DNA from: Anaerolineae bacterium | Lineage (GTDB): Bacteria; Chloroflexota; Anaerolineae; B4-G1; SLSP01 | Length of the DNA stretch: 64,000 nucleotides | NCBI GenBank assembly: GCA_034676805.1 | Contig: JAXDDO010000010.1 | Coordinates: 18,480-82,479, forward strand | Direction of reading: 5' to 3' | Shown here: piece after piece, positions 10,088 to 50,540 of the stretch | Layout: every line of letters begins with the position of its first letter | Numbering within the stretch: position 1 is the stretch's first letter | Position numbers and translations under genes: made by a program | Notes under the pieces: generated by a model | Database searches by the model: none | What the model saw: only the letters and a program-made list of their open reading frames with translations | Told to the model about the DNA's origin: nothing

Positions 10088-10250
10088 AGGGCTTTCTCCC
10101 TGGGCAATGGGAGTATAGAGCAGCGTCTCGATCTTGCACAGCAGGTGGCCCAGTCGGGCGGATTCCTGTGGCGCTTGACACGGCTCCCGGCTGCCCCATC
10201 ATGGGACACGAGCCGTGCGCTGTCCAACAAGATCAGGCGAGGAGCCGGGA

Positions 10251-11306: not shown

Positions 11307-11428
11307 CGCCAGCGCTACGTGGGCGACCGCGTGCTGGGTCGACCTTGCCCGCGCCGCATCGCCCTGGTGTCGCCGACCAGTGCCCGGGAACCGGTGAGGG
11401 CATCTCGGATGATGCCGATGGAGGTCGT

Positions 11429-26935: not shown

Positions 26936-28795
26936 TTACCCCCAGATCTGGCGCATCTCCTCGCAGCCTGCCAGTAGGTCATCGAGTGCCCCTTGCGCTT
27001 CGACATGACCGTCTCTCAGCACGATGATGTGGTCGGCGCGGCGCAGTGCGGGGCGCCGGTGCGAGACGACCAGGCACGTCGTCCCCAGCGCTTTCCCACT
27101 CCGCCCGAAGATGTTCTCCCATAGCGCCTGTTCGGTCTCGACATCAAGCGCACTGGAGAGGTCATCGAAGACCAGGAGTTCGGGCTCGCGCACGAACATG
27201 CGCGCCGCTGCTGTGCGCTGGCGTTGGCCTCCCGAGAGCTTGACGCCTCTGGGGCCGATGATGGTGTCGAGCCCGTCAGGCATGCGGGTCAGGTCGAACT
27301 CCAACGCAGCGAGGCGGATTGCGCCCCGAAGATCGACGCGATCTTCGGGCAGGCCCATCAGGATGTTGTCGCGGAGCGACTCGCTGAAGAGTTGGGGGAC
27401 TTGGGCGGTGTAGGCGCTGCGCGGCGGCACGAAGAAGGACGCCGGATCCGCTACTGATAGGCCGTTCCACAAGACGGCGCCGCACTCGACGGGCAACAGA
27501 CCCAGCAACGCGCGCAGCAGCGTCGTCTTGCCAGATCCGACCCGCCCCGTGACGACAACGAAGTCGCCGCGGCGCAGGGAGAAACTGACCCCCTCGATGC
27601 CGCGCAAGCCATTTGCGCCTGTGCTTCCGTACCGGTACGTCAGATCGCGGACTTCCAGGCTCTTCAGCGTGTCTTCCGGAGCGTGTTCCGGTAAGGCTAT
27701 CACCGGCAGTGCACCCCGTAGATAGATGGGCTTGTGCGCCAGGAGCGTGGTGCTGGCTGCCGGTGCGGGCATGGCGGGCGGATCGCCCTGGATCAGCTCG
27801 ATGACCCGCCGGAAAGCGACACCGGACTGTTTGAAGCGCGTCGTGAAGCCGCCGGCTTCCACGATCAGCATCGTAAAGCTGTCGAGGCAGGTGAGAAAGA
27901 GCGCGAAGTCGCCGATGGTGAAGGCGTCGTTCCGGATCGCACTGGCGACGAGCAGGAGGATGACCCCGTGGCTCAGTGCGCCCGCCTCGTCGCACATCGC
28001 ATAGAGCATCTGGTTAAGCGTGCGGTCACGGACCATCGCGCGCTGCCGGTGCCGGCCTAGCGCGTAGACGTGGTTGGCGGCATGGGGCTCGGCGCCGGCA
28101 ACCTTGAGCGCCTGTACCGCGCTCAGGATCTCGTTGAGCGCGCCACTGACGCGGGAGGTGGCTTCGCGGCTGATCTGCCGGTAGCGTTCAGCGTGCGTTG
28201 AGGCAACCCGAGAGATCAGGATCACAGCCACGAGCGGCAGCAACGAGAAGAGCGCGATGCGAGCCTCGATGGTCAGCATGATGCCCAGGGCGACGGCGGT
28301 ATAACTGAACACCGCAACTTGGTCGACCAGCCACCCAATCAGGCCCTCGACCTCGCCGACGTCATCGCGAACGGTGTTGAGCGCTTCTCCCGGCGACCCG
28401 GGCACCGACCGCGCGCCGGGCTGGTTCAGGATGTGTGCCAGGAGGTTGCGGCGCAGCAGCCCAGCGATCGTAAAGCGGTGACGCGCGCTCACCACTGCAC
28501 CGGTGCCGATCGTCACGATGTGGAAGCCGCGCGAGAGCAAGACCACGATAAGGATTCCCAGGATGCCAAAGCGGAAAGGCCGGTCTCCACTCAGTGTGTC
28601 GAAGAAGGCCTTGAGGATCAGGCGCGGGGCCAGCTCCATGATGTGGATAATCAGCCAGATACCGGCGTAGCCCAGTGAAAGCCACGGCCGGTAGGATAGC
28701 AGGCGCCAGACCATCCATAGGATGCTGGTCCGGCCTTGGGCGTCTTCTGCTCGCTGCACTGCGGTAAGTGCTGGTTCTTGCGTTGTGGCAGTCAT
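26936..28795 (-). CDS. ABC exporter, fused permease/ATPase (second half of a heterodimer)
   Basis: Six-TM exporter domain, Walker [10 protein letters not shown], signature LSGGQRQR and Walker B LLVFDD. AAGGGGGA RBS is present. The gene starts 17 nt after the upstream ABC gene. Confidence 0.9.
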
Positions 28796-28812: not shown

Positions 28813-30639
28813 TCAGGCCAAGACCTCTGCCATCCCCGTCTCCAGCAGATGGCGGAAGTGCGAGTCAGGATCCTCAGCCAATCGAACTCGGTCGCCCATC
28901 TCGCGAATGCGCCCGTCTTCGAGGATGAGAATCTCGTCGGCCCGGTGGACGGTGTTCAACCGGTGCGCGATGACGATGCCGGTCCGGTTGGCCAGGAGCC
29001 GATCGACGGCCTGCTCGATCAGTTGCTCCGTCGCCGGATCGAGACGTGACGAGGCCTCATCGAGGATGACCAAGTCCGGATCTGTCAGGAATGCGCGGGC
29101 AAAGGCCAACAACTGGGCCTGGCCTGCTGATAAGCCGCCTCCTCCAGCGCCGAGCTCGGTGTCCAGGGCCTGCGGGAGGCTCTCCAGCCAAGGCCCTAGA
29201 CCCAAGCCATCGAGCACAGCACAGATCCTGGCATCGGGGATCCCCGGTTGAAAGAGCGTGAGGTTGTCGCGAACCGTGGCCTGGAAGAGCTGGACCTCCT
29301 GGGTTACCAGCGCCACCCGCCTGCGGACCTCTCCGATAGTGATGTCGGTCACGGCAACGTCTCCGAGGCAGACTTGGCCCGCCGTGGGGTCATAGAGCCG
29401 CAAGAGCAGACGGGCCAGCGTTGTCTTGCCGCTGCCCGTGCGGCCCAGAAGCCCCAGAACTCGCCCTGGCGCCAGGGTAAAGTCGAGATCCCGCAGGACC
29501 CGATCGTCCTGACCTCCGGCGGATGTGAGGGTCTCTATCGCGGACTGCCCGTTGCTGGACCCGTTTCCTCCGCTGGCCTGTGGCATGGCATCAGCGTAGG
29601 TGAACGATACGCCCTTGAACGCGACTGCGAGGGCGCCGGCCGGCAGCGGCCCTTCACTTCCGTCGACCAGACTGGAATGGGTGTCGAAGAGCTCCTGGAT
29701 GCGCGCGATTCCGGCATCGGCCTGCTGGAGCTCCGTGAGCTGCCAGCGCAGCTCGGCGATCTGCCCGAACAACAGCCCCATGTAGTCGCTGATGAGGTAG
29801 GCTGAACCGAGGGTGGTCTCGCCGCGGAGCCATAGATACCCGGCGACACCGTAAGCAACGACCTCGCCAACCGCCACCAGAGCGGCGTTGGTCATCCAGC
29901 CAGAATAGGCCGCGACGCTCGCGTTGCGGTCTATGGGCAACCAGCGGCGCAGGAACTCGAAAAGGCGGTGCATCACGTAGGGCTGAGCACCGTTGGCCCG
30001 GATGTCCTCAGTGCCCGTGAACTGCTCGCCGAGAAAGCCGTAGAACTGGGCACGGACCTCGCGCAACCTGGCATAGTAGGGAATCGCGATGTGACGCAAG
30101 CGCATCAGCACGAGCAGCCCGACGATCGCGTACACCGTGAAGCTCGCGCCTACCAGCCATCCCTCCCGGAATATCATGACGAGCACGCCGGTTGCCAGTA
30201 CGCCGTTCCCGATGACGCTCAGGACGAACTGCGAGAAAAAGCTCGACAGAGCATCGACATCGCTGTCGATGCGTTCGGTGAGCTCTCCAGGGGTGTGGGC
30301 TTTGTGAAAGGTCATGTCCAACCCCAGAAGATGCCGCAGCAGGTCCAGCCGCAGGGCGTTAGTGGCGGTCCAGGCTACGGTCTCACCCACGTAGACGTTG
30401 GCGACTGTCAGGACCTGCGTGGCGGCAGCGATTGCCAAGAACGCGCTGCCCTGACGCAGCAGACTCCCTACCTGGGCACCGGCGAAGGCTTGATCCAGGA
30501 ACGAACGCATGATCTGCGGGTTGACCAGGCGCAGCGCGATCTTGGCGATCAGCAGTGCGGACAGGATGATGATTCGGCGCCACTGGGGGCGAAGGTAAGT
30601 GCGCAACAGGGTCCAATAGCGCTTGATGGGTACCTTCAT
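28813..30639 (-). CDS. ABC exporter, fused permease/ATPase (first half of a heterodimer)
   Basis: Walker A GRTGSGKTT, signature LSAGQAQL (degenerate, as is common in heterodimeric exporters) and Walker B LVILDE. Start set at ATG 30639 (MKVPIKRYWTLL) because the track's GTG 30687 lies inside the upstream terminator hairpin. Confidence 0.9.
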   Translation of the reverse strand: MKVPIKRYWTLLRTYLRPQWRRIIILSALLIAKIALRLVNPQIMRSFLDQAFAGAQVGSLLRQGSAFLAIAAATQVLTVANVYVGETVAWTATNALRLDLLRHLLGLDMTFHKAHTPGELTERIDSDVDALSSFFSQFVLSVIGNGVLATGVLVMIFREGWLVGASFTVYAIVGLLVLMRLRHIAIPYYARLREVRAQFYGFLGEQFTGTEDIRANGAQPYVMHRLFEFLRRWLPIDRNASVAAYSGWMTNAALVAVGEVVAYGVAGYLWLRGETTLGSAYLISDYMGLLFGQIAELRWQLTELQQADAGIARIQELFDTHSSLVDGSEGPLPAGALAVAFKGVSFTYADAMPQASGGNGSSNGQSAIETLTSAGGQDDRVLRDLDFTLAPGRVLGLLGRTGSGKTTLARLLLRLYDPTAGQVCLGDVAVTDITIGEVRRRVALVTQEVQLFQATVRDNLTLFQPGIPDARICAVLDGLGLGPWLESLPQALDTELGAGGGGLSAGQAQLLAFARAFLTDPDLVILDEASSRLDPATEQLIEQAVDRLLANRTGIVIAHRLNTVHRADEILILEDGRIREMGDRVRLAEDPDSHFRHLLETGMAEVLA

Positions 30640-30667
30640 GGTCTGATCCTTATGCTTCCATGCACGC

Positions 30668-30701
30668 AAAAAGGCCACGGACGTCACAGACGTCCGTGGC
30701 C
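30668..30701 (-). terminator. Intrinsic terminator inside the leader (attenuator)
   Basis: On the minus strand: GGCCACGGACGTC-tgt-GACGTCCGTGGCC (30701-30673) followed by TTTTTG (30672-30667). The stem is a perfect 13 bp. Confidence 0.75.
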
Positions 30702-30881
30702 CGATGGGTTGCTTAGGCGATAGCGGTGATGCTCAATCGACGCACTGTAACGGGAATAGCGGTACGTTCCCCCAGCATCTACCGGAGATCAGCCCAGGGT
30801 GGCCTGGTGTTCGAAGCGGGCGGGTACCCGAACAGGCACCCGCCGGAGACCTGTCCGGTGGGACAGACTTCCCGATAGAGG

Positions 30882-30911
30882 CTAGTGAACGATGTAGAGA
30901 TCCCGGCTCAT
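30882..30911 (-). CDS. Possible leader peptide uORF (MSRDLYIVH)
   Basis: ATG 30911 to TAG 30882. An AGGAGA lies 11 nt upstream. That SD and the start sit in or next to the helix GAGACGATC/GATCTCT. This is purely a sequence-based suggestion. Confidence 0.25.
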   Translation of the reverse strand: MSRDLYIVH

Positions 30912-30941
30912 TGCGTCGATCGTCTCCTGAGGATGTTTTAG

Positions 30942-30969
30942 ATTATAGCGCCAACCTACGGAATGTCAA
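30942..30969 (-). promoter_or_regulatory. Sigma-70 consensus promoter (TTGACA-16-TATAAT) for the leader/ABC operon
   Basis: Minus strand reads TTGACA (30969-30964), a 16-nt spacer, then TATAAT (30947-30942). Both hexamers match consensus exactly. Confidence 0.7.
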
Positions 30970-31001
30970 ATCAGTAGTGAACAGATAATGACTAGAATAT
31001 A

Positions 31002-31030
31002 TTGACATTTATTGTTCATCGTGCTATAAT
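31002..31030 (+). promoter_or_regulatory. Sigma-70 consensus promoter with extended -10 (TTGACA-17-TGcTATAAT) for heliorhodopsin
   Basis: TTGACA at 31002-31007, a 17-nt spacer ending in TGC, then TATAAT at 31025-31030. It lies 31 nt upstream of ATG 31062, which has an AAAGGAAA RBS. Confidence 0.75.
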
Positions 31031-31061
31031 CAAGCTAGTTCTAACGTGAAAGGAAACCGAG

Positions 31062-31841
31062 ATGAAAAGGGAAAGCGACGAGAAGGTATACAGCGGCTTG
31101 CGTCGGTTCAACCTGATTATGGGGGGGCTGCACCTGATCCAGGGCATTCTGATGATCGTGCTCAGCAATGACACGACCTATCCGATCTTTACCAACTTCC
31201 TGAAGTTCGACCGGGCGACCTTCAGCCTGGTCCCAGACCCGCAGTTGGCTTATGAGCTCCGCTTTGGGCCGGCAGTGGCCTTGTTTCTGCTGATCTCGGC
31301 GGTAGCGCACTTCTACCTCTCAACCCTGGGATATCGGCGCTACGTGACCAACCTCAAGCAGGGGATGAATCCTGTGCGGTTCTACGAGTACGCGCTGAGC
31401 TCCTCGTTGATGATCGTCCTGATCGGGATGCTGGTGGGCATCTGGGATCTGGGCAGCATGATTCTGATGTTCGGCATCAACGCGATGATGAACCTGTTCG
31501 GCATCATGATGGAGTATCACAACCAGTATACCAAGAAGACGAACTGGACTTCATTCATCTATGGGAGCATCGCTGGGATCATCCCGTGGATCGTGATCCT
31601 GTTGTACTTCTTTAGTGCGCTGAACTCCTCTGATGCGGAGCCGCCGGCCTTCGTCTACGCGATCATCCCCACGATCTTCGTCTTCTTCAACTCCTTCGCG
31701 ATCAATATGGTGCTGCAGTACAAGAAGGTGGGGCGCTGGAAGGACTATCTCTTCGGCGAGCGGGTCTACATCATCCTGAGCCTGTTGGCGAAGACGGCGC
31801 TGGCGTGGCAGATCTTTGCGGGGACCCTGGCACCGGTGTAG
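31062..31841 (+). CDS. Heliorhodopsin (7-TM retinal protein, inverted topology family)
   Basis: Full-length similarity, from memory, to heliorhodopsin 48C12. Shared blocks are FN.I.G..HL.Q (His24), AHF (His83), R..EY.LSSS.MIVLI (counterion Glu109), AGI.PW and FFNSFA...LQYK..G.W..YL.GER.YI.LSL.AK.ALAWQIF.GTL (Schiff-base Lys244, aag 31791-31793). Confidence 0.9.
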   Translation: MKRESDEKVYSGLRRFNLIMGGLHLIQGILMIVLSNDTTYPIFTNFLKFDRATFSLVPDPQLAYELRFGPAVALFLLISAVAHFYLSTLGYRRYVTNLKQGMNPVRFYEYALSSSLMIVLIGMLVGIWDLGSMILMFGINAMMNLFGIMMEYHNQYTKKTNWTSFIYGSIAGIIPWIVILLYFFSALNSSDAEPPAFVYAIIPTIFVFFNSFAINMVLQYKKVGRWKDYLFGERVYIILSLLAKTALAWQIFAGTLAPV

Positions 31842-31878
31842 ACCGCAGGCGTCCGTGTTCGCTCTTGGGCTAGCATAC

Positions 31879-31908
31879 AAGCCCGGCACAGTCGTGCGTG
31901 CCGGGCTT
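31879..31908 (+). terminator. Intrinsic terminator after heliorhodopsin
   Basis: AAGCCCGGCAC (31879-31889) pairs with GTGCCGGGCTT (31898-31908), followed by TGTCATT. Confidence 0.65.
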
Positions 31909-32193
31909 TGTCATTGGCCCAGGACCATCTTCGGCCACGACCGTCCAGGACTTCGACGTGCGTGCGCGTCGCCCGGAGGTTTTCGGTCCGGGCCTATAGC
32001 CCTTTTCGCCGTGCAAGGTAGAATGAAGCGCACGCGTCATCGGCCCCAGTCTGGGCCCGGGTGACGGGGCTGAGTGCCCCGACGGGGGCAATTAGAGCGC
32101 AAGAAACGGAGTTTACCGCGGATCGCCTTCGCTATCATGGAGGATAGACAAGTTGGTCACCTATCACAGGTGACGCGATAGCGGAGGTGTGTC

Positions 32194-33267
32194 ATGGTTC
32201 TAATGGAGATGAAAGAGCTCGCTGTGTTCTCAACAACATCAAGCCGCTGGGAGGCAATCGTTCGACGGGACACCGAGGCGGCCAAGGCCTTTGTCTACGG
32301 CGTAGTGACGACGGGAATTTACTGCCGGCCCGGGTGCCCCTCGCGGCTGCCGAACCGGGAGAACGTGCGGTTCTTTGATACGTGGGAGATGGCCGAGGCT
32401 GCCGGGTTCCGCCCGTGCAAGCGCTGCACGCCGCAATCGCCCGACGAGCCGGATGCGGCGACGCGGGCGGTGGTCGAGGCGTGTCGGATCATCGAGACGT
32501 CGGAGCAGGCGCCTACGCTGCAGGCGCTGGCCGATGCGGTAGGGTTCAGTCCCTATCACTTCCAGCGGCTGTTCAAGCGTATCGTGGGCGTCTCGCCCAA
32601 GCAGTATGCCGTGGAGACACGGCTCGACCGGGTACGGAATGGCCTGCACGAAGAGGCCTCTGTGACGGACGCGATCTACGGTGCCGGCTTCGAGTCCAGC
32701 AGCCGTTTCTACGAATCGGCCACGGCCTCGCTGGGGATGAAGCCGTCGGAATTCCGACAGGGAGGTGTGGGCATGGCGATCCGCTACGCGGTGACGCGGT
32801 GCTATCTGGGTTGGGTGTTGGTGGCGGCCACGGACAAGGGGATCTGCAGGATCGATCTGGACGCGACGCCGGAGGCGTTGGAGGCCCGCCTGAGGGCCGA
32901 CTTCCCCCAAGCGGACCTACAGGCCGACGGCACGGGCTTCGACCAGGTCCTCGCGGAGGTTGTCGCGCTCCTGGAAGCGCCCGAGCGCGGCCTTTCACTG
33001 CCGCTGGACATCCAGGGGACGGCGTTTCAACGACGCGTCTGGACCGCGCTGCAGGAGATTCCCGCAGGATCCACCGCGAGCTACAGCGAGATCGCCGCGC
33101 GGATTGGCGCGCCCAAGGCGGCGCGGGCTGTGGCGCGGGCGTGTGCTTCGAACAGGCTAGCCGTTGCCATCCCGTGTCATCGTGCGGTCCGCAGCGACGG
33201 CGGCTTGGGTGGATACCGGTGGGGGCTCGACCGCAAGGAGGCGATCCTGGAGCGGGAGTCGGCGTAG
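32194..33267 (+). CDS. ada: Bifunctional Ada: methylphosphotriester-DNA methyltransferase/AraC-type activator fused to O6-methylguanine-DNA methyltransferase
   Basis: Ada Zn-finger YCRPGCPSR...FRPCKRC, AraC HTH (GFSPYHFQRLFKR..G.SP..Y) and the C-terminal active site IPCHRAV. GGAGG RBS is present. Confidence 0.9.
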   Translation: MVLMEMKELAVFSTTSSRWEAIVRRDTEAAKAFVYGVVTTGIYCRPGCPSRLPNRENVRFFDTWEMAEAAGFRPCKRCTPQSPDEPDAATRAVVEACRIIETSEQAPTLQALADAVGFSPYHFQRLFKRIVGVSPKQYAVETRLDRVRNGLHEEASVTDAIYGAGFESSSRFYESATASLGMKPSEFRQGGVGMAIRYAVTRCYLGWVLVAATDKGICRIDLDATPEALEARLRADFPQADLQADGTGFDQVLAEVVALLEAPERGLSLPLDIQGTAFQRRVWTALQEIPAGSTASYSEIAARIGAPKAARAVARACASNRLAVAIPCHRAVRSDGGLGGYRWGLDRKEAILERESA

Positions 33268-38821: not shown

Positions 38822-38964
38822 GGTTGTAGGACCTCGGTGATAGTATTTGGTGTGATGGTAGCACAGGCGGGGGGATCTGGCTAGCCGGTGGCCGCTCTGG
38901 GATCCGCCGGTCTGATCGGCAAAAAAAGAGCCCGGCACATCAACGTGCCAGGCCGCCCAATCAA

Positions 38965-39038
38965 TGGGTCGTGCAGGATTCGAACCTGCGGCCCTGGGCT
39001 TAAAAGGCCCCTGCTCTGCCGGACTGAGCTAACGACCC
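38965..39038 (-). tRNA. tRNA-Lys (anticodon UUU)
   Basis: The minus strand reads GGGTCGTTAGCTCAGTCCGGCAGAGCAGGGGCCTTTTAAGCCCAGGGCCGCAGGTTCGAATCCTGCACGACCCA. It folds as a cloverleaf with a 7-bp acceptor stem, GCTC/GAGC D stem, anticodon loop CTTTTAA and GCAGG/CCTGC T stem with TTCGAAT loop. The 5' and 3' thirds are near-identical to E. coli tRNA-Lys. CCA is not encoded. Confidence 0.92.
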
Positions 39039-39049
39039 AAGTGGGCAGG

Positions 39050-40740: not shown

Positions 40741-43700
40741 ATGATGATCCGGAAGGTGCTCCAGATCCGTGTGCTGGGGCAGTTTGACGTTCGCTGCGAT
40801 GATCGCGCGATCGGTATTTCCTCTCGGCCGGCGCAATCCCTCTTTGCCTACCTCGCGATGAACGCGGGGCTCACCCATCGCCGCGAGAAGCTGGCGGGCC
40901 TACTCTGGCCCGATTCGACGGAGAGCAACGCCCGGACATATCTCCGCCAGGCGCTTTGGCGGGTGCGGAAGGCGATGGAAACCGCTGGGATCAGCTGTGA
41001 GACTTACCTGGAGGTCGATGACCTGGCGCTGCGTTTCCCCGCTGAGGCCCCGTACTCGCTCGATGCTGCGGTGCTTCTCGAGTTGTCTCCTTCCGGGGGT
41101 TGGTCTGTGGAAGAACTCCAAGCCGCGGTGTCCGCCTACCGGGGAGAGTTTCTCCCAGGGTTCTACGACGAGTGGACGGTGGTCGAGCGTGAGCGGCTCC
41201 TGGCCGCCTTTGATCGCAAGATGCGGCTGCTGACCGACCATCTCCAGGCGCAGCAGCGCTGGAATGATGTCCTTGTGTGGGCTGAGCGTTGGGTCAGCCT
41301 GAGCCGGGTTCCGGAGCCGGCCTATGTCGCGATGATGACCGCCCATGCCGGGTTGGACGACATTCCCGCGATGCACATGACGTACGAGCGTCTTGCGGAG
41401 GCGTTGGATCGTGAGCTGGGGATGGCGCCGTCGGACGAGGTTTGCAGCTTGCGGGAACGCCTTGGGCATGGAACACCCCCTCTGCTTGTGCCGACCGTGC
41501 CCCTGGTCGAGACCGAGGCGTGGAGCTGTGCCCCTTCAGGGCTCGCCCCGACAACGGGTTTGCCTCCTTACAAGGGCCTAGCTTTCTACAATGTCGAGGA
41601 CACGGATCTCTACTTCGGGCGCGAGCGGCTGGTCGGCGACCTTGTCGATCGGCTGCATACCTATCCACCGCTGCTGATCATCGTGGGGGCGTCGGGCTCT
41701 GGCAAGTCCTCGCTCCTGCGGGCCGGTCTCGTGCCAGCCATCATGCGCGGCCCAGAGGGTCAACGCTGGGCCGTTAGGATTCTAGACCCTACGGCGCATC
41801 CGCTGCAGGCATTGGCGATTGCTCTCGTTGGTCAAGATGGCGCCAACGAAACCCTAGCTATGGAAAAACCGCTGGAAGAGGATCTCGGTATCCGACGCGC
41901 AGTTGAAGCGCTTCTGGAGCGGGAAGGTGCAAGCCGGATGCTCTTGGTCGTTGACCAGTTCGAGGAGTTGTTCACGCTTTGCCGGGATGAGCAGGAGCGC
42001 AGCGCCTTTGTCGATGCGCTTGTGCAGGGGATTGATCCGTCGATAGATGGTGTCCTGAGCGTCGTAATAGCTTTGCGAGCTGACTTCTACGACCGTTGTG
42101 CTGACTTCCCGGCTTTGCGCGATGCACTCAGTGACCATCAGGTCTACGTGGGGGCGATGACACCTCAGGAGTTGCGCCGGGCGATCGAGGAGCCAGCCGC
42201 GCGCGGAGGATGGACCTTCGAGCCGGGACTCGTTGACTTGATCCTGCACGACGTTCGGAACGAACCGGGCGCATTGTCGCTGCTATCGCATGCGCTCCTG
42301 GAGACCTGGCAGCGTCGCACGGGATGCATGCTGACGCTTGCGGGTTATGCCGAAGCTGGCGGAGTACGCGGTGCGGTTACCCGGACAGCGGAGGCGTTCT
42401 ACAACCGCCGGTTGTCGCCGCTACAGCAAGGGATTGCGCGCGCCATCTTCCTCCGGCTGACTGAACCAGGTGAAGACGGGCCGCCCACACGTCGGCGGGT
42501 GGCGCGCCACGAACTAGCGCTATCCGGGGTTGCGCCTGCGGAGGTCACGCACGTGCTTGATCTCCTGTCTGACGCCCGCCTGGTTACGCTTGGGATCGAG
42601 ACGGTCGAGGTGACCCACGAGGCCCTGATTCGTGAATGGCCCACCTTGCGGCGTTGGCTCGCCGAGGATCGTGAAGGGCTCAGAATTCACCATCACCTCA
42701 CCGAGGCTGCACAGGCTTGGGAAGCTTTAGATCGTGACCCGGGCGCGCTCTATCGCGGGACACGGCTTGTCCAGGCCGAGTTCTGGGCACAATCGCATGC
42801 GATGACACTCAATCCTTTGGAATACGAGTTCCTCGAGGCCGCTGTGGCCCAGCGAACGGGCGAGGTCGCCGAACATCAGGCGCAACAAGAACGCGATATC
42901 GAGGCGGCACGGCGGGCGGCGGAGGCCGAACGGGCTCGGGCCGAGGCTCACGCGCAATACGGGCACCGTCTCCGCTGGTTGGTCTTGGGGCTCAGTTGCG
43001 CGCTCTTGATGGCTGTGCTCGCGGTAGGTCTGGCGATTGAGCAACGGAGTCGTGCTGAGAGGCAGGCGCACCTCGCCCGGGCCCGTGAGTTAGCGGCGGC
43101 CTCAGTCAGTGCTCTCACCGTTGACCCGGAGTTGAGCATTCTCCTGGCCTTGCGTGCCGTATCCGAGACGACGGCAAGTGACCTACCCGCCGTACCGGAG
43201 GCGGTGGAATCCTTGCACAAAGCTGTGATAACGTCGCGGCTGCGCGCTGTGTTCACGGGGCAGGGACAGGAGGTCACCGATCTGGCTTTGAGCCCAGACG
43301 GGAAGTGGCTGGGTGTAGCGGGCCGCGGCGGGGCGGTGTACGTTTGGGACGTGAAGACCGGCCAAGCGTTGCGCGTCTTGTCAAGTGGCGCATTCCATGC
43401 GATCACTGCCGTCGCCTTCGATCCCCAAGGCACGATGGTGGCCTCGGTCGATGATCGAGGAACCATCACGATCTGGGACTGGGCCGAGGGGCACCCACTG
43501 GAGACGATGCAGGGCAGTTCGTCCGTCAGGGCCTTGGTCTTCAGCCCTTCAGGAACCCTTGTCGCTTTCTTGCGGTATGGTGAGAGTGTTCATATCTGGG
43601 ACGTTGTCACCGGCCAGATCGTCGCTGAAGTTGGCGACAGCGCGCAGCAGCTTGTGGATCTAGCTTTCTCGCCAGACGGAACCATGCTGGCCGTGGCAAG

Positions 43701-45210
43701 TCTCCGCGATGGCGTATCGCTGTGGGATATGGCTACACGTGCACGGCTGGCCACCATTGCAGGCGCCGCGGGTGACATAACACGGATCGCTCTCAGTCCG
43801 GATGGCGATCGTATGGTGACGGCAGGCCTGGATGGCACGGCGCGCATATGGCGGCTCGATAGGCCCGGCAGCGCCGGTGAACAGCTGGCGTTGCATGGGC
43901 ATCAAGGCGCTATTCTGAGCATCGCGTTCAGCAGCGATGGTCAGTGTATCGCGACAGGTGGGATCGACCGCAAGGCAAGAGTCTGGGATGCGCAGACCGG
44001 ACAGGGGTTGCTAACGCTGGCGGGACATAGGAGCGATGTGGCGAGGGTAGCCTTCGCACCGGACGGCGATCTTTTGTACACCGCAAGCGGGGATGGCACG
44101 GTGCGCGCATGGAACCTCGGTCTCAACGCGGAGTATGCCACGCTCGCCGTGCCGGATGGTGTCTTCCGCTTCGCGTTCAGCCCCTCAGGAGACGTCATAG
44201 CGGCTGGCGTCGGGGAAACTGGCACGGTGTGGGTCTGGGACGTCCGTACGAAGGGGCAGAGTCGCGTCTTGGCGACCGGCCATCGTGCGCGTGTGAGCAG
44301 CCTCGCTTTCAGTGCGGATGGACGGTGGGTGGCGACGGCGAGTGATGATGCAACCGCTCGCGTTCTGCGTGCCGATACGGGGGAGACCTCGATCGTCCTG
44401 GAGGGGCACAGCGACTGGGTCAACGACATTGCCTTCAGTGCCGACAGCCTGCTTGTCGTGACGGCCAGCCGTGACCAGACTGCCAGTCTCTGGAGCGTTC
44501 CCACAGGGCCGCGAGTGCGTACTCTCGTGCCGCGGAATGCTGATGTGGTTGCGGTTGCGTTCCCCCTACTGGCAGATCCCACTACCTACAGCACCGTGAC
44601 CGCCACGACCAATGGAATAGCCGCCGACCTGCTGGTCATTGGGAGCACTGCGGGTGTCGACATCTGGCGCGCAGACGGTTCCCGACAGTTGCTTGCTCTC
44701 AGGGTGGGCCCTGGCGTTGTGAACGACGTTGCCATTAACCCGGACGGGACGGCGATCGCGGCTGCCCTGGGAGACGGGACAGTCCAAGTTTGGTCGCTTG
44801 ACCGGGAAGCAGGGGGGGAACTCCGCGTGGCGAGCGAGCGTTTCCTCACCGGTCACGCAGCCCAAGTTGTGGGCATTGCGTTCAGCCCCGATGGAGCACA
44901 GCTGGCTACAGCTAGCATGGACGGCACCGCCCGCATCTGGGAGGTCGCGACGGGTAGCTCGCTTCTATCACTGCATGTAGCCGACGATACGTGGTTGAGC
45001 AGTGTTGCATTCAGTCCCGACGGTCGTCTTCTGGCCGTCAGCAGCGGCCACGGGATTCATCTCTACCTGACGCACCTCGACGACCTTGCGAGCCTGGCTC
45101 GTAGCCGGCTAACGCGTGGGTTCGCGGTAGAGGAGTGCGCGCGTTATCTGCGCGAGGAGGCCTGTCCCGTCCTCGAAGAAGGCGTGACTGTGCCGGCCTC
45201 GGCTCCCTGA
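40741..45210 (+). CDS. SARP(OmpR-type wHTH + BTAD)-STAND NTPase-TM helix-14xWD40 regulator
   Basis: N-terminal SARP signature (IRVLGQFDVRCDDRAIG...RPAQSLFAYLA...REKLAGLLWPD....AR..LRQALWRVRK) and a BTAD domain. P-loop IIVGASGSGKSSLLRAGL with Walker B LLVVDQFEE, a coiled/charged linker, and one TM helix (LRWLVLGLSCALLMAVLAVGLAI, about nt 42970-43038). These are followed by 14 WD40 units. GGGAGG RBS precedes ATG 40741; the track GTG 40714 is 9 codons longer. Confidence 0.9.
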   Translation: MMIRKVLQIRVLGQFDVRCDDRAIGISSRPAQSLFAYLAMNAGLTHRREKLAGLLWPDSTESNARTYLRQALWRVRKAMETAGISCETYLEVDDLALRFPAEAPYSLDAAVLLELSPSGGWSVEELQAAVSAYRGEFLPGFYDEWTVVERERLLAAFDRKMRLLTDHLQAQQRWNDVLVWAERWVSLSRVPEPAYVAMMTAHAGLDDIPAMHMTYERLAEALDRELGMAPSDEVCSLRERLGHGTPPLLVPTVPLVETEAWSCAPSGLAPTTGLPPYKGLAFYNVEDTDLYFGRERLVGDLVDRLHTYPPLLIIVGASGSGKSSLLRAGLVPAIMRGPEGQRWAVRILDPTAHPLQALAIALVGQDGANETLAMEKPLEEDLGIRRAVEALLEREGASRMLLVVDQFEELFTLCRDEQERSAFVDALVQGIDPSIDGVLSVVIALRADFYDRCADFPALRDALSDHQVYVGAMTPQELRRAIEEPAARGGWTFEPGLVDLILHDVRNEPGALSLLSHALLETWQRRTGCMLTLAGYAEAGGVRGAVTRTAEAFYNRRLSPLQQGIARAIFLRLTEPGEDGPPTRRRVARHELALSGVAPAEVTHVLDLLSDARLVTLGIETVEVTHEALIREWPTLRRWLAEDREGLRIHHHLTEAAQAWEALDRDPGALYRGTRLVQAEFWAQSHAMTLNPLEYEFLEAAVAQRTGEVAEHQAQQERDIEAARRAAEAERARAEAHAQYGHRLRWLVLGLSCALLMAVLAVGLAIEQRSRAERQAHLARARELAAASVSALTVDPELSILLALRAVSETTASDLPAVPEAVESLHKAVITSRLRAVFTGQGQEVTDLALSPDGKWLGVAGRGGAVYVWDVKTGQALRVLSSGAFHAITAVAFDPQGTMVASVDDRGTITIWDWAEGHPLETMQGSSSVRALVFSPSGTLVAFLRYGESVHIWDVVTGQIVAEVGDSAQQLVDLAFSPDGTMLAVASLRDGVSLWDMATRARLATIAGAAGDITRIALSPDGDRMVTAGLDGTARIWRLDRPGSAGEQLALHGHQGAILSIAFSSDGQCIATGGIDRKARVWDAQTGQGLLTLAGHRSDVARVAFAPDGDLLYTASGDGTVRAWNLGLNAEYATLAVPDGVFRFAFSPSGDVIAAGVGETGTVWVWDVRTKGQSRVLATGHRARVSSLAFSADGRWVATASDDATARVLRADTGETSIVLEGHSDWVNDIAFSADSLLVVTASRDQTASLWSVPTGPRVRTLVPRNADVVAVAFPLLADPTTYSTVTATTNGIAADLLVIGSTAGVDIWRADGSRQLLALRVGPGVVNDVAINPDGTAIAAALGDGTVQVWSLDREAGGELRVASERFLTGHAAQVVGIAFSPDGAQLATASMDGTARIWEVATGSSLLSLHVADDTWLSSVAFSPDGRLLAVSSGHGIHLYLTHLDDLASLARSRLTRGFAVEECARYLREEACPVLEEGVTVPASAP
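43261..45080 (+). repeat. 14 WD40 repeats (two predicted 7-bladed propellers), coding
   Basis: Repeat ends: VYVWD, ITIWD, VHIWD, VSLWD, ARIWR, ARVWD, VRAWN, VWVWD, ARVLR, ASLWS, VDIWR, VQVWS, ARIWE, IHLYL. Confidence 0.85.
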
Positions 45211-46995: not shown

Positions 46996-48069
46996 TCAGA
47001 GGTCACGGGGAGGGGGAAGGGCCAGGGAAGCGGGGCGACTGTCGAGGTCGCGGAGCTGGGCGCGCAGGTCGGGGTCAGAGATGGTAGCGACCTGGAAGCG
47101 GATGGGGGCGTCGCCGCCGGAGACAGCGATGAAGTCGCCGCGACCGTGGAGGAGGTGGGCGTCGGTGGCGGCGCGCCCGGAGGCGATGCGGGCGTCCTGG
47201 GCGGAGGTGACGTGGCCGATGAGGCGGAGGGGGAAGTTGGCGCGGATGACGGCGCCGAGGATGGCGGCGGCGGGGTGTTGGGTAGCGGCAACGAGATGAA
47301 TGCCGGCCTCGCGGCCGCGTTGGGCGATGCGGGTGAGGGCGTCGGAGACGGGGGCGCCGCCGACCATGAGGAGATCGGCGAGCTCGTCGATGAAGACGAC
47401 GATGCGAGGGGTAGCGGGGGAGTCGTCGGGACGTTCGCCGCGGCGGTCGCGGGTGAGCAAGGTGCGGAGGAGCGAGTGGAGGGCCTCGGCGGCCTCGTTG
47501 GGGTCGGCGATGGGGGGACGGGCGAGGTGGGGAGCGGGAGCGAGAGGGGCGAAGGTGCGGGCCTTGGGGTCGATGCAGACGAGGCGGAGGGCGAGGGGGG
47601 AGTTGGTGAGGATGAGGGAGGCGGCCATGGAGCGGAGGAGGACGGACTTGCCGGAGCCGGTGGTGCCGGCGACGAGGACGTGAGCGACGTCGGGGGCGGA
47701 GAGGCGTGCGAGGAGGGGGAGACCGGCGTCGGTGAGGCCGAGGGTGGCAGTGGCGCGCGGGAGGGGTAGGACGGCCTGGAGGAGCGAGAGGAGGTCGACG
47801 GGGTTGGGGTGGGGATTGGGGAAGGAGAGGACGACGCCGTTGGGGTCGCGGTCGATGTGGAGGTTGGGGACGCGCATGGCGAGGGCAAGGTCATCAGCGA
47901 GGCGCTTGATGGTGGCAAAGCGGGTGTGTGGGGCGGGGTTGAGGAAGAAGCGGATGAGGCGTGGGCCGACGGTGCCGCCGGTGACACGACCGGGGGCGCG
48001 GTGAGCGGCGAGGATGGCCTCGACGCGGTCGGCCTGGTACTCCAGATAGGGCCTGATTTTCCTTGGCAT
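46996..48069 (-). CDS. Short FtsK/SpoIIIE-family ATPase (motor domain only; no TM region or gamma domain)
   Basis: Walker A VAGTTGSGKSVLLRSM, Walker B IVVFIDELADL, and FtsK-like blocks (GLT..G.P...L...PH.L.AG, HLVAATQ.P). AAGGA RBS is present. Length is 357 aa. Confidence 0.85.
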   Translation of the reverse strand: MPRKIRPYLEYQADRVEAILAAHRAPGRVTGGTVGPRLIRFFLNPAPHTRFATIKRLADDLALAMRVPNLHIDRDPNGVVLSFPNPHPNPVDLLSLLQAVLPLPRATATLGLTDAGLPLLARLSAPDVAHVLVAGTTGSGKSVLLRSMAASLILTNSPLALRLVCIDPKARTFAPLAPAPHLARPPIADPNEAAEALHSLLRTLLTRDRRGERPDDSPATPRIVVFIDELADLLMVGGAPVSDALTRIAQRGREAGIHLVAATQHPAAAILGAVIRANFPLRLIGHVTSAQDARIASGRAATDAHLLHGRGDFIAVSGGDAPIRFQVATISDPDLRAQLRDLDSRPASLALPPPRDL

Positions 48070-48106: not shown

Positions 48107-48135
48107 ATTATAGCGATGTCCTTTCCGTCTGTCAA
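48107..48135 (-). promoter_or_regulatory. Sigma-70 consensus promoter (TTGACA-17-TATAAT) of the FtsK-like gene
   Basis: Minus strand reads TTGACA (48135-48130), a 17-nt spacer, then TATAAT (48112-48107). Confidence 0.7.
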
Positions 48136-48267: not shown

Positions 48268-48555
48268 ATGCCCAATCTGGCAGAACTGGCGCCCTTCCTA
48301 AGAGCACTCGCGGATGACACCCGGCTGCGGCTTGTTATGTTGCTGGCACAGCAGGAGCCGGGTGTAGCGATGTGCGTGAACCGTCTGGCGCGCGAGTTGG
48401 GGACGAGTGCACCCAATGTCTCACAGCACCTCCGTGTTCTCAAGGATCTCGGGCTGGTCTATGGAGAGCGGCGCCGCTATCGGATTCACTACTTTCTTGC
48501 GAGGGACCGGTTCCGATACTACGCCGAGTTGGTGCCAGCATTACTCGGCGACTAA
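48268..48555 (+). CDS. ArsR/SmtB-family transcriptional regulator
   Basis: LRALADDTRLRLVMLL....MCVNRLA..LG.S.PNVSQHLRVLKD.GLV is the canonical ArsR wHTH. Only one Cys sits in the alpha-3 region. Confidence 0.9.
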   Translation: MPNLAELAPFLRALADDTRLRLVMLLAQQEPGVAMCVNRLARELGTSAPNVSQHLRVLKDLGLVYGERRRYRIHYFLARDRFRYYAELVPALLGD

Positions 48556-48593
48556 CCTCCAGAAACATAGGTTGCCCACAGGAGGCGCTGAAG

Positions 48594-50540
48594 ATGGCTA
48601 TTCACTCACCGGAAAAGCGTAAAGGTGCTGCGCAGAATCAGAAGCCATCGAGTGATGGGAAGGGCGCGAACCCAGGTGGTCGCGGTCGTTCCGGACAGAG
48701 TCCCGGACAGGGCTCAAAACCTGGGCCGAAAGGGCCGGTAGGTCCGACGCTACGACGATTGCTGACTCATATCAAGCCCCACGCGGGGATCTTTACTGCG
48801 GTCGTTTTGGCCGCTCTGCTGACGACGGCTGCCGAGCTTGCCCCGCCAGCCATCATCCGCCGGTCCATCGATCAGTTCATCCTAGGTGGACAGTCCAACA
48901 TGATCTGGTGGGCCGCAGGCGGCCTCCTGCTGTTGGCGATCGTGCAAGGCGCCATCGATTTCCTGCGGCTCTACCTCACCGCCTATATGGGTCAGCAGAT
49001 CGTCTTCGGGATCCGCAACGCCGTCTTTGAGCACCTCAGCCGGCTTTCCTTCTCCTTTTACGACCGGGCGCGCACCGGCGATCTGATGTCGCGCGTGACG
49101 GCCGACGTGGACGCGCTGAGTAACTTCTTTGGGCGTGCGTCCGTCATCGTGCTCACCAATGTCCTTACGCTCATCGGCATCCTCGTGGTGCTCCTCATCT
49201 GGGATTGGCGCCTGGCCCTTATCTATCTGGCCTGTGTGCCTCTGATTGCCCACGGCATTTCAGTCTACGCCAGGCGTGTGCGCCCGGCGATGGGGCGTGT
49301 GCGCCGGAAGCTCGCCGACCTGACCGCAGCGCTTCAGGAGAGCCTCGCCGGCTCGCTCGTGGTCAAACTCTTCGGCCGCGAGGCGTTTGAGCGACAGCGC
49401 ATCGACCGGCAGAGCAAGGGAGTGTTGCAGGCCAACCTGGAGACTGCGCGGATCACGTCGCTCTGGATGCCCTATGCCAGTGTCGTGATGGGCGTTGCAA
49501 CGGCGCTCGTGCTATGGTTCGGGGGGCGCAGTGTGATCGCGCAGGTGGTCACGCTGGGCACGCTAATCGGATTCACAACTTATATTCAGCTGTTGTTGCG
49601 GCCAATCCGCTCCACGGGCATGATGCTGAGCATGACGCTGCAGGCGTTGGCCGCTGCGGAGCGCATCTTCGAAGTGCTTGATACGCAACCCGAGATCCGG
49701 GACGCCCCCGATGCTCATCGGCTTCCGATGGTGGAGGGCCGCGTGCGCTTTGATGATGTCAGCTTCGCCTATGGCGCGGACGGTGAGAGTGTTGAGGCGC
49801 TGCGGGACGTGAGCCTCGAGGCCGAGCCGGGCGAAATGGTGGCGCTTGTGGGGCCATCGGGTGCCGGAAAGACGACGCTGGTGCATCTTCTGCCCCGCTT
49901 CTATGAGGCACAGTCGGGCACGATCACGATCGATGGGCACGACATTCGCAAGGTCACAGTACAGAGCCTGCGTGACGCTATTGGTATTGCCCTCCAGTCG
50001 GTCTTCCTCTTCGACGCCTCCATCGGCGAGAACATCGCCTATGGCAACCCCCGCGCTACTCAAGAACAGATCGAATGGGCCGCGGGCGTGGTGCAGATGC
50101 ACGACTTCATCAAGCGCTTACCTCTCGGCTACGGCACGCCCGTGGGCGAGCGCGGGGTCCGGCTTTCCGGAGGTCAGAAACAGCGCATCGCTCTGGCCCG
50201 TGTGCTGCTCACCGATCCGCGCATCCTGATTCTCGATGAGCCCACTTCCAGCGTCGATGCGGCTACCGAGCGGCAGATGCAAGAGGCGCTCGATCGCGTG
50301 CGTTCTGGGCGGACCACGTTTGTGATCGCACACCGGTTGTGGACGGTGCTGCAAGCCGACCAGATCCTCGTCCTTCAGGACGGACGTATTGTTGAGCAGG
50401 CCCGCAGTAGCGAGGGTCGTTCGGCCCACGAGGCACTCCTCGCCGCGAATGGGCTTTATCATCAGCTCTTCGAGTTGCAGCGGGTGGGCGAGAAGCTTGC
50501 TGCCCTGGAAGTCGAGCCGGTGCCAGGAGGTGCGGCATGA
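48594..50540 (+). CDS. ABC exporter, fused permease/ATPase
   Basis: GGAGG RBS precedes ATG 48594, so the track start 48372 was trimmed. Six-TM domain, Walker A GPSGAGKTT, signature LSGGQKQR and Walker B ILILDE. Confidence 0.9.
   Translation: MAIHSPEKRKGAAQNQKPSSDGKGANPGGRGRSGQSPGQGSKPGPKGPVGPTLRRLLTHIKPHAGIFTAVVLAALLTTAAELAPPAIIRRSIDQFILGGQSNMIWWAAGGLLLLAIVQGAIDFLRLYLTAYMGQQIVFGIRNAVFEHLSRLSFSFYDRARTGDLMSRVTADVDALSNFFGRASVIVLTNVLTLIGILVVLLIWDWRLALIYLACVPLIAHGISVYARRVRPAMGRVRRKLADLTAALQESLAGSLVVKLFGREAFERQRIDRQSKGVLQANLETARITSLWMPYASVVMGVATALVLWFGGRSVIAQVVTLGTLIGFTTYIQLLLRPIRSTGMMLSMTLQALAAAERIFEVLDTQPEIRDAPDAHRLPMVEGRVRFDDVSFAYGADGESVEALRDVSLEAEPGEMVALVGPSGAGKTTLVHLLPRFYEAQSGTITIDGHDIRKVTVQSLRDAIGIALQSVFLFDASIGENIAYGNPRATQEQIEWAAGVVQMHDFIKRLPLGYGTPVGERGVRLSGGQKQRIALARVLLTDPRILILDEPTSSVDAATERQMQEALDRVRSGRTTFVIAHRLWTVLQADQILVLQDGRIVEQARSSEGRSAHEALLAANGLYHQLFELQRVGEKLAALEVEPVPGGAA

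Follow-up and report, generated by a model that had tools for sequence, protein, structure and literature searches.

The window, that is, the whole 64-kb stretch of DNA analysed here, carries on its plus strand a heliorhodopsin gene preceded by a sigma-70-type promoter and followed by a hairpin, with two ABC exporter genes diverging from it upstream and ada on the same strand downstream (Table 1). The first-pass annotation did not contain the minus-strand promoter of the ABC exporter operon, which lies back to back with that of the heliorhodopsin gene; the AT-rich pocket at this locus consists of these two promoters.

Table 1. Features of the heliorhodopsin locus (positions in the window)
Feature	Position	Strand	Description
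Heterodimeric ABC exporter genes	28813-30639, 26936-28795	-	Two fused TMD-NBD half-transporters; directly upstream, divergent
Second perfect promoter	30942-30969	-	TTGACA, 16 nt, TATAAT; 12/12 match; points at the ABC exporter operon
Sigma-70-type promoter, extended -10	31002-31030	+	TTGACA-17-TGcTATAAT; 12/12 match; TTGACA 31002-31007, 17-nt spacer, TG 31022-31023, TATAAT 31025-31030
Shine-Dalgarno AGGA	31051-31054	+	7 nt ahead of the ATG; AAGGAG at the equivalent place in L002
Heliorhodopsin CDS	31062-31841	+	259 aa, ATG start; matches in Pfam, NCBIfam and solved structures
His24 codon CAC	31131-31133	+	Aligns to the conserved TM1 histidine of solved heliorhodopsins; invariant in 121 clade members
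His83 codon CAC	31308-31310	+	TM2 histidine; aligned to solved structures, invariant in the clade
Glu109 codon GAG	31386-31388	+	Schiff-base counterion position (Glu107 of 48C12); invariant in the clade
Lys244 codon AAG	31791-31793	+	TM7 retinal Schiff-base lysine (48C12 position 241, TaHeR chain position 244); invariant
Terminator-like hairpin	31879-31908	+	11-bp GC-rich stem 31879-31889 / 31898-31908, 8-nt loop, then UUUGUCAUU
ada	32194-33267	+	Same strand, 353 nt downstream of the heliorhodopsin gene

Family membership, hallmark residues and relatives

Two curated profiles match the product of the ORF from end to end, the Pfam heliorhodopsin model PF18761 (342.2 bits for a cut-off of 26.7, profile positions 1-242 of 242) and the NCBIfam heliorhodopsin equivalog NF038020 (376.8 bits for a cut-off of 100, positions 1-244 of 244). 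These scores, far above the cut-offs, bear out the family assignment of the first-pass annotation through the very profile search that it had proposed. On 20 public contigs, genes called independently yield the same heliorhodopsin product of 259 aa, and nothing was found that contradicts the identification. Judged by its sequence, this ORF is a genuine and typical full-length heliorhodopsin of an Anaerolineae clade.

The best match among solved structures is TaHeR, from a Thermoplasmatales archaeon (PDB 6is6, 7clj and 7u55; with 6is6, E = 2e-79, 270 bits and 52.5% identity over residues 4-258), a protein of equal length in which His24, His83, Glu109 and Lys244 align without shift, although it is archaeal and its TM5-TM6 loop is five residues shorter than that of the window protein. 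The founding heliorhodopsin HeR-48C12 (PDB 6su3, 6su4 and 6uh3), of actinobacterial origin, also aligns over its full length (with 6su3, E = 7e-60, 206 bits and 45.8% identity, residues 10-258 against 9-255), with indels in the first extracellular loop, and the four functional residues fall on its positions 23, 80, 107 and 241. The full-length match to 48C12 stated in the first-pass annotation therefore holds, but 48C12 is less similar than TaHeR, which is the nearest solved relative.

The residues singled out earlier (His24, His83, Glu109 within an EY.LSSS motif, and Lys244) all align to functional residues of the solved structures, the lysine being placed in TM7 by the alignment to both proteins, and the translation contains the motifs EYALSSS and LSLLAKTALAWQIFAGTL. 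Glu107 of 48C12 is described as the counterion in a passage of PMC10434121, and the role of the histidines of helices 1 and 2 is described in the preprint of Chazan et al. Across 121 clade members, 115 of the 259 residues are invariant, including H24, H83, E109, S113-115 and K244, and the window protein shows no departure from the consensus shared by at least 90% of the clade. It has seven hydrophobic segments, with 16 lysines and arginines on the N-terminus and loops 2-3, 4-5 and 6-7 versus two on the opposite side, and is predicted to be a seven-helix membrane protein with a cytoplasmic N-terminus, inverted relative to type-1 rhodopsins.

The clade is large and tightly conserved (75-86% identity in hundreds of MAGs), and the nearest genome to the window organism is MAG AnMBR.bin427, the locus of which (L002) is syntenic. 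BcHeR, from Bellilinea caldifistulae, comes from the same class, Anaerolineae, as the window organism, itself of a different, uncultured lineage, and its photochemical characterisation (Shibukawa et al. 2019) is cited in a passage of PMC9769723. It is probably the closest experimentally characterised relative, because of the shared class and because the heliorhodopsin of a Bellilinea sp. (L018) is 79% identical to the window protein, a comparison made via L018 and not with BcHeR's own sequence.

Transcription signals and base composition

The 64 kb contain three sites of the form TTGACA-N16-18-TATAAT, where 100 shuffles predict 0.00, and the block AATATATTGACA..TATTG.TCAT.GTGCTA.AAT around the heliorhodopsin promoter is conserved in the syntenic L002, where the flanks have diverged. 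The closest relatives have a comparable near-consensus promoter 80-125 nt ahead of the conserved domain, and in same-species contigs the heliorhodopsin gene, its promoter and its terminator are without differences. The very strong promoter proposed at first pass is thus a perfect consensus retained in L002; transcription would start near 31037, giving a leader of about 25 nt.

In a sub-clade of the relatives, a gene for a CarH-like B12 photoreceptor-regulator is found 3' of the heliorhodopsin gene, and CarH-type phased operators lie on the heliorhodopsin promoters. ACA repeats in 11-nt phase over the promoter number at least three in seven of eight CarH-linked loci, versus one at the window promoter, and the window contains no gene for a MerR and B12-binding regulator beside helR. 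A CarH operator on the window promoter was rejected, as the phased-ACA test was negative for the window, L002 and L008. The spacer of the window promoter (TTGACA-N5-TGTTCA) resembles that of L048 (TTGACA-N5-TGTACA).

Past the stop codon, the region 31842-31925 folds with -43.1 kcal/mol (z = -4.0; none of 200 shuffles is as stable), the stem being part of a larger structure, and stable structure at this place is common in the clade (z <= -2 at 47 of 79 loci). The hairpin terminator described earlier stands as far as the hairpin is concerned and is less certain as a terminator: its tail is a weak U-tract, with fewer than 5 T in 8 bases, and for this reason it is absent from the consensus terminator scan. 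The heliorhodopsin gene most likely forms its own transcription unit, with transcript ends that we infer, and read-through into ada is possible because of the weak U-tract and the lack of a consensus terminator call.

Over the whole window, the GC content is 0.634; it falls to 0.556 in the heliorhodopsin ORF and to 0.366 in the upstream stretch 30950-31061; this windowed calculation, suggested at first pass, agrees with the AT-rich pocket seen there, especially in the roughly 110 bp upstream. The deficit of the ORF lies at codon positions 1 and 2 (0.47 and 0.35), its GC3 is 0.86 versus 0.79-0.83 in the neighbouring genes, and the offset between gene and genome is the same in every high-GC relative, so that the lower GC of the gene is due to amino-acid composition. 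The low GC of the ORF and of the 110 bp ahead of it could be read as the mark of a recently acquired foreign island, the more so as heliorhodopsins 79-83% identical are found in MAGs labelled Caldisericota and the clade may therefore move between phyla. Such an origin is nevertheless extremely unlikely: beyond the GC3, at or above that of the neighbours, and the equal offset across the high-GC relatives, synteny with L002 extends on both sides of the gene, the flanks are without mobile-element genes, and the AT-rich stretch is wholly explained by the two promoters. We rejected it on GC3, synteny and the clade-wide offset; at the level of sequence, the gene is shown to be native and vertically inherited, with native codon usage.

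Neighbouring genes and candidate partners

No crt, blh, RPE65-type or second rhodopsin gene was found by Pfam among the selected ORFs of the 64-kb window, and six-frame tblastn over the same 64 kb found no CrtI, CarH, photolyase or other partner protein; both searches agree with the earlier statement that the window holds no retinal-synthesis or other photoreceptor gene. Among related heliorhodopsin loci, 42 of 66 have no same-strand neighbour within 100 nt, and stand-alone genes make up about 61% in the literature (PMC11109279). Large neighbour surveys including Chloroflexi are already published, and blh is rare near heliorhodopsin genes according to published surveys. The stand-alone layout is the commonest for the family and nearby retinal genes are normally lacking, both of which are already known.

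The ORFs around 79 related heliorhodopsin genes were clustered to find a conserved partner in cis, and no ORF family occurred in more than 10 of the 79 loci. Recurrent neighbours in the relatives are the crtI family, CarH-like proteins, photolyase (near the heliorhodopsin gene at six related loci), alpha/beta hydrolase, DegV, DUF2177 and DUF1295, all of which are absent from the six frames of the window. With at most 10 loci per family and none of the recurrent families in the window, a conserved partner in cis was rejected. Rfam families at gathering score were limited, over the whole window, to tRNA-Lys, and at E <= 1 the region 30600-32200 gave two chance-level matches only. The pairs AbHeR-glutamine synthetase and TfHeR-photolyase (PMC9529153, PMC9769723) belong to the same family, with the same action proposed, in which a partner is bound light-dependently through the cytoplasmic loops; the 64-kb window has neither a glutamine synthetase nor a photolyase gene.

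Orthologues of the ABC exporter have in common a conserved, attenuator-like leader with a terminator, for which Rfam has no matching family; in the window, its hairpin lies at 30668-30701, within 30941-30600 of the minus strand. As a candidate leader peptide, a frame with EH(V/I/A)VA(V/A)RL at its end recurs in five of eight of these leaders; its starts and ribosome sites are inconsistent, and conservation extends to the third codon positions.

As in the window, the heliorhodopsin gene of the OcHeR-OmrDE system lies beside two genes for fused TMD-NBD half-transporters, and OmrDE is a binding partner of OcHeR, by which it is up-regulated in light (PMC11109279). The window protein might likewise bind the membrane domains of the divergent exporter and raise efflux in light, the genes forming a divergon with a shared AT-rich control region. 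This is consistent with the two half-transporter genes directly upstream, with perfect promoters set back to back and only 32 nt apart, with a layout kept in same-species contigs and in L002 (ABC orthologues 70% and 67% identical), and with the loops of the protein, of which ICL1 and ICL3 are basic and ICL2 and ICL3 contain the Trp. We regard such a partnership as unlikely. In the published ABCT group, the ABC genes precede the heliorhodopsin gene in a shared operon, on the same strand, and OcHeR-OmrDE is co-transcribed, whereas the ABC genes of the window are read from the other strand and have a promoter and a leader to themselves. Within the 79 loci with an identified heliorhodopsin ORF, window included, an exporter pair lies within 6 kb at only four others (L002, L009, L010 and L050), and the pair is orthologous only in L002, so that the adjacency, same-species contigs apart, is found in one lineage only. 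In the reverse search, which assessed ABC orthologues with enough upstream flank, those at 63-73% identity (L087, L089, L090, L091, L093 and L113) have an upstream heliorhodopsin gene in none of six cases. The window has two such ABC pairs in its 64 kb, and chance adjacency is therefore likely; the charged loops are generic across the heliorhodopsin family; and one ABC gene carries the nonsense allele E203* in the same-species L082-L084, where the heliorhodopsin gene is nucleotide-identical. It is the reverse search and this allele that weaken the partnership. An elaborated form, in which the heliorhodopsin and the attenuator-controlled exporter would be one unit, a photoreceptor made constitutively from its consensus promoter modulating the exporter post-translationally while a previously undescribed leader RNA gates the synthesis of the exporter, is in our view improbable; if true, the principle known from OcHeR-OmrDE in Actinobacteria would also apply in Chloroflexota and to genes laid out as a divergon.

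On the other side of the gene, a leaky terminator could allow co-transcription with ada and so link light sensing to a regulator of adaptive DNA repair. The two genes share a strand, the U-tract after the hairpin is weak, promoter-like sites are lacking between 31908 and 32194, and the coupling of heliorhodopsin with photolyase gives a precedent for a DNA-repair partner (PMC9769723). This link seems to us quite improbable, however, as the 353-nt gap holds a very stable hairpin, as L002 has an 846-aa gene and about 4 kb between the heliorhodopsin gene and ada, and as ada is near the heliorhodopsin gene in no other related locus.

Probable role and significance

The locus very probably encodes a canonical Anaerolineae heliorhodopsin, in a transcription unit of its own, acting as a retinal-binding light sensor with a partner outside the operon. 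A housekeeping sigma factor would read the consensus promoter into a leader of about 25 nt with the AGGA site, and the GC-rich hairpin would stop most transcripts. All-trans retinal, supplied by genes outside the window or by the environment, would be bound at Lys244; Glu109 would serve as the counterion, and His24 and His83 would belong to the proton-accepting network. Going by the heliorhodopsins already characterised, the pigment may be expected to absorb in the green near 550 nm, to have a slow photocycle and to pump no ions; as a light sensor, it might alter the activity of its partner protein, encoded outside its own operon, through its positively charged cytoplasmic loops. A regulatory, non-pumping role of heliorhodopsins is supported by three studies (PMC9529153, PMC9769723, PMC11109279), but the viral heliorhodopsin V2HeR3 transports protons (PMC9448325) and non-pumping is thus not universal in the family.

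The contigs of the organism come from bioreactor metagenomes, mostly dark habitats, and the light-sensing role is an assumption of ours. A role that is independent of light or not sensory, such as proton conduction of the V2HeR3 kind or the lipid-related activity suggested by the DegV and DUF2177 neighbours, would account for strong expression in a dark-bioreactor organism with no visible retinal pathway. The bioreactor origin, the lack of retinal genes in the 64-kb window, the proton transport by the viral protein, the lipid remodelling speculated on by Chazan et al. and the recurrence of DegV, DUF2177 and DUF1295 beside the heliorhodopsin gene in relatives would all fit such a role. We nevertheless hold it to be very improbable, given that the clade shows no variation in the retinal lysine, the counterion or the pocket, which argues for a chromophore-dependent function, that the gene of the relatives has photolyase, CarH-like and crtI genes around it, which together form a light-response set, and that the bacterial heliorhodopsins tested so far are non-pumping.

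For the unsettled function of heliorhodopsins, a retinal-binding light sensor at this locus is of little consequence, because its clade comprises hundreds of close relatives, among which it is typical and one of which has been characterised before, and because its stand-alone layout and the missing nearby retinal genes are the published norm. As an instance of a heliorhodopsin gene beside a heterodimeric ABC exporter it is one more, and a weak one. The locus does provide a clear-cut case of a consensus promoter with its leader from an uncultured Anaerolineae genome, and it illustrates that a membrane-protein gene may look poor in GC without being foreign DNA. The leads worth more than the heliorhodopsin finding itself are the conserved leader of the ABC exporter and the CarH-linked operators of the relatives, by which the expression of heliorhodopsin itself would be light-inducible.

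Family assignment and key residues

We confirmed the position and length of the heliorhodopsin (HeR) gene, helR, proposed in the first-pass annotation, and the profile search suggested there matched the ORF product to the whole of Pfam Heliorhodopsin PF18761 (342 bits, cut-off 26.7 bits) and to the NCBIfam equivalog NF038020 (377 bits, cut-off 100 bits); 'heliorhodopsin HeR' is the name that the NCBI annotation pipeline would assign. The likeness to 48C12 stands as a family match (6su3, E = 7e-60, 45.8% identity), but the closest solved structure is TaHeR (6is6, E = 2e-79, 52.5% identity). The EY.LSSS motif and the C-terminal block were both found in the translation (as EYALSSS and LSLLAKTALAWQIFAGTL), and the codons of His24, His83, Glu109 and Lys244 were checked and align to functional positions of 48C12, of which we take 23 and 80 to be the proton-network histidines, 107 the counterion and 241 the Schiff-base lysine. 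Abstracts call Glu107 the counterion (PMC10434121). When aligned with its 120 best database relatives, the protein has at least 99% conservation at 115 of 259 positions, these four residues included, and nowhere departs from a consensus of at least 90%. It has seven hydrophobic segments, with 16 Lys and Arg on the N-terminus and the 2-3, 4-5 and 6-7 loops versus 2 on the opposite side, a count that predicts the N-in topology; this topology is the defining trait of the family.

At E <= 1e-20 the database contains over 7,500 matching proteins. Of the 120 best listed, the top match shares 95% identity with the window protein and the others 79-86%, and those with a named source come from Anaerolineae MAGs. 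Among species-representative genomes, the HeRs of the 80 top-scoring loci have 75-84% identity; almost all of these loci belong to Anaerolineae or to other members of the Chloroflexota, and many come from anaerobic reactors. HeRs 79-83% identical to the window protein are also found in MAGs labelled Caldisericota (loci L007, L016 and L024; locus GC 0.25-0.38), where helR GC matches the low-GC host; either old inter-phylum transfer or strong conservation would account for them, and mis-binning is possible.

Coordinates of features in the window
Feature	Position	Strand	Remarks
Heliorhodopsin ORF	31062-31841	+	ATG start, 259 aa
His24 codon	31131-31133	+	48C12 position 23
His83 codon	31308-31310	+	48C12 position 80
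Glu109 codon	31386-31388	+	48C12 position 107
Lys244 codon	31791-31793	+	AAG; 48C12 position 241
helR promoter	TTGACA 31002-31007; TG 31022-31023; TATAAT 31025-31030	+	17-nt spacer
Terminator-like hairpin	31879-31889 / 31898-31908	+	11-bp GC-rich stem, nested in larger structure
Second perfect promoter	30969-30942	minus	TTGACA-16-TATAAT; back to back with helR promoter, 32 nt apart
ABC operon leader	30640-30969	minus	~300 nt, attenuator-like
Leader mini-ORF	30911-30882	minus	9 codons (MSRDLYIVH)
Leader box GUUACAGUGCGUCG	30751-30738	minus	
Leader hairpin	30701-30668	minus	13-14 bp + U5
True start of first ABC gene	30639	minus	ATG; independent gene calls give 608 aa
Fused TMD-NBD ABC half-transporters	28813-30639 (first); 26936-28795 (second)	minus	upstream of helR, divergent
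Ada-type methyltransferase/AraC regulator	32194-33267	+	353 nt downstream of helR
tRNA-Lys(UUU)	38964-39039	minus	
BTAD + nSTAND1 + WD40 protein gene	~40741-45210	+	1489 aa
FtsK-like gene	46996-48069	minus	
Third perfect promoter	48107-48135	minus	TTGACA-N17-TATAAT
Small ORF	48268-48555	+	N-terminus ArsR-like in appearance
Second ABC exporter gene pair	48372-52339	+	after small ORF

Transcription signals, base composition and inheritance

The TTGACA-17-TGcTATAAT promoter reported earlier indeed matches the consensus at 12/12 positions and has an extended -10, and AGGA lies 7 nt upstream of the ATG. In the window TTGACA-N16-18-TATAAT is found three times, where 100 shuffles give an expectation of 0.00; the third occurrence lies between the FtsK-like gene and the small ORF. 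The hairpin terminator held only in part: the post-stop region is very stable (-43.1 kcal/mol, z = -4.0; 0/200 shuffles fold as stably), but the tail UUUGUCAUU makes a poor U-tract, and the site at 31879-31908 is not among the hits of a consensus terminator scan. The end of the transcript at 31908 is, with this weak U-tract, putative. We regard the layout as typical, because the closest relatives repeatedly show a near-consensus promoter with a spacer of 17 nt, post-stop structure reaches z <= -2 in 47/79 related loci (median -2.7), and helR stands alone in 42/66 loci by the crude criterion that neither flank has a same-strand gene within 100 nt, a proportion near the 61% of 'helR alone' in PMC11109279.

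The lower GC noted for the gene and the ~110 bp upstream was borne out by measurement (window 0.634, ORF 0.556, 30950-31061 0.366). As a sign of foreign origin it was ruled out, by a helR GC3 of 0.86 (0.47 and 0.35 at codon positions 1 and 2; GC3 of the four adjoining genes 0.79-0.83) and by the same offset between locus and gene in every high-GC relative, such as L002 (MAG AnMBR.bin427; 0.63 vs 0.56), L013 (0.65 vs 0.58) and L061 (0.67 vs 0.58). The 110 bp are AT-rich because two promoters lie there. Elsewhere, a stretch of lower GC3 begins just past tRNA-Lys(UUU) and may be a different compositional domain; it includes the 1489-aa gene, called on same-species contigs and left out by the GC3 filter on window ORFs.

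The exact HeR protein is present on 20 public same-species contigs (99.5-99.9% DNA identity) with identical gene order and zero differences in helR, promoter and terminator. The Anaerolineae MAG locus L002 is syntenic on both sides, with the ABC pair, helR and, farther on, ada and the MFS gene, and in its intergenic alignment with the window a conserved block, AATATATTGACA..TATTG.TCAT.GTGCTA.AAT, stands out. helR is thus native to this lineage and has passed down it vertically. On the same-species contig L085 (560-931), from a bioreactor metagenome, the N-terminal 124 residues of the HeR are only 92% identical, with an ABC gene 100% identical to that of the window, which may point to recombination or to a mosaic of strains in the intergenic region.

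Gene neighbourhoods and the divergent ABC exporter

Beyond ada come genes for a 649-aa protein that has no Pfam match, a DUF6259 protein, an MFS transporter and tRNA-Lys. The scanned ORFs of the 64 kb include no phytoene synthase, phytoene desaturase, lycopene cyclase, blh or RPE65, and no type-1 rhodopsin, photolyase or B12-binding MerR family; six-frame tblastn of the window with the partner proteins of relatives gave no match. The first-pass annotation, which saw no retinal-synthesis or other photoreceptor gene here, was therefore right, and the lack of retinal genes agrees with the Chazan et al. preprint, in which blh is rare both near heliorhodopsin genes and in heliorhodopsin-only genomes.

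Clustering of all ORFs around 79 related helR genes gave no neighbour family in more than 10 loci. The recurrent neighbours are a light-response set: crtI-family desaturases (10 loci), a MerR + B12-binding CarH-like regulator 21-79 nt downstream of helR (7) and DNA photolyase (6), besides alpha/beta hydrolase (7), DegV (8), DUF2177 (5) and DUF1295 (6). This set overlaps with the ten groups of neighbours in Cho et al. 2024 and with the signal from DegV and DUF2177 in Chazan et al.

The CarH-like gene follows helR in L019, L032, L048, L057, L060, L072 and L079 (about 10000-12200 each) and also in L080, the top NCBIfam match being CarH with a score under the curated cut-off. The helR promoter carries three or more ACA elements with 11-nt phasing, spanning -35 to past -10, in 7/8 of these loci vs 1/69 others (shuffle p <= 0.003 each), a layout that we take to be CarH-type, as in the Thermus CarH operator, and that suggests B12- and light-dependent control of helR expression in these relatives. 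Among the papers searched, none connected heliorhodopsin with CarH or LitR. Light-response islands surround helR in L060 (8227-9717), L066 (6311-9723), L048 (12337-15545) and others: in L060 a crtI-family phytoene desaturase (459 bits, over the cut-off) is directly upstream, L051, L062, L066 and L067 have two crtI/crtISO-like genes upstream, and L048 has photolyase, an unknown 263-aa protein and an alpha/beta hydrolase downstream.

As PMC11109279 shows, OcHeR binds to OmrDE, a heterodimeric multidrug exporter, and makes it more active in light; the genes belong to a single operon, in which those for the ABC proteins are upstream. An exporter of the same kind directly adjoins helR in the window, but here it is divergent, with its own promoter and leader, and a functional link between the two seems very unlikely. 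Of 79 loci in which the HeR ORF was identified (window included), only four others have such a pair within 6 kb, and among those four only L002 has the orthologous pair. A reverse search with the ABC protein (80 loci returned) found helR upstream only in L085, and orthologues at 63-73% identity with enough flank have no helR upstream. Two such pairs occur within the 64-kb window, so chance adjacency is plausible, and in the same-species contigs L082-L084 the second ABC gene carries E203* while helR is unchanged.

The ABC leader has a GC-rich structured stretch, with the box, downstream of its mini-ORF. Its hairpin and box are kept upstream of all ABC orthologues at 63-73% identity (L002, L086-L093, L113) and are not conserved upstream of more distant relatives. 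RNAalifold on 8 leader sequences gave 0 broken pairs and two pairs with double compensatory changes; an Rfam search matched no family. By inspection, the box GUYRCAG could pair with CUGUGAC (loop and start of the 3' arm) as a candidate antiterminator, and a leader-peptide frame ending EH(V/I/A)VA(V/A)RL occurs in 5/8 leaders, with inconsistent start codons. L082-L085 (99.7-99.9% identical to the window overall) differ from it at 11-12 positions concentrated in the leader (30686-30848), among them an inversion of the hairpin loop (ACA to TGT on the + strand), and by 0.1-0.3% in the region outside it. The first ABC gene is unchanged in the sister-strain contigs. The leader changes and the nonsense mutation in the second ABC gene may mean that the exporter operon is diverging in its regulation, or decaying, in those strains.

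Proposed role

The best-supported reading, by analogy, is that the window HeR would be a canonical retinal-binding, non-pumping light sensor, its gene probably transcribed from its own strong housekeeping-type promoter and its product acting on a partner presumably encoded elsewhere. The sequence features are established, and its photochemistry and mode of action would follow those of characterised relatives: BcHeR, from the same class as the window organism, AbHeR with glutamine synthetase, TfHeR with photolyase and OcHeR with OmrDE. No feature of the locus would surprise a specialist or gives a new handle on heliorhodopsin function; the window HeR belongs to a well-populated, already characterised kind.
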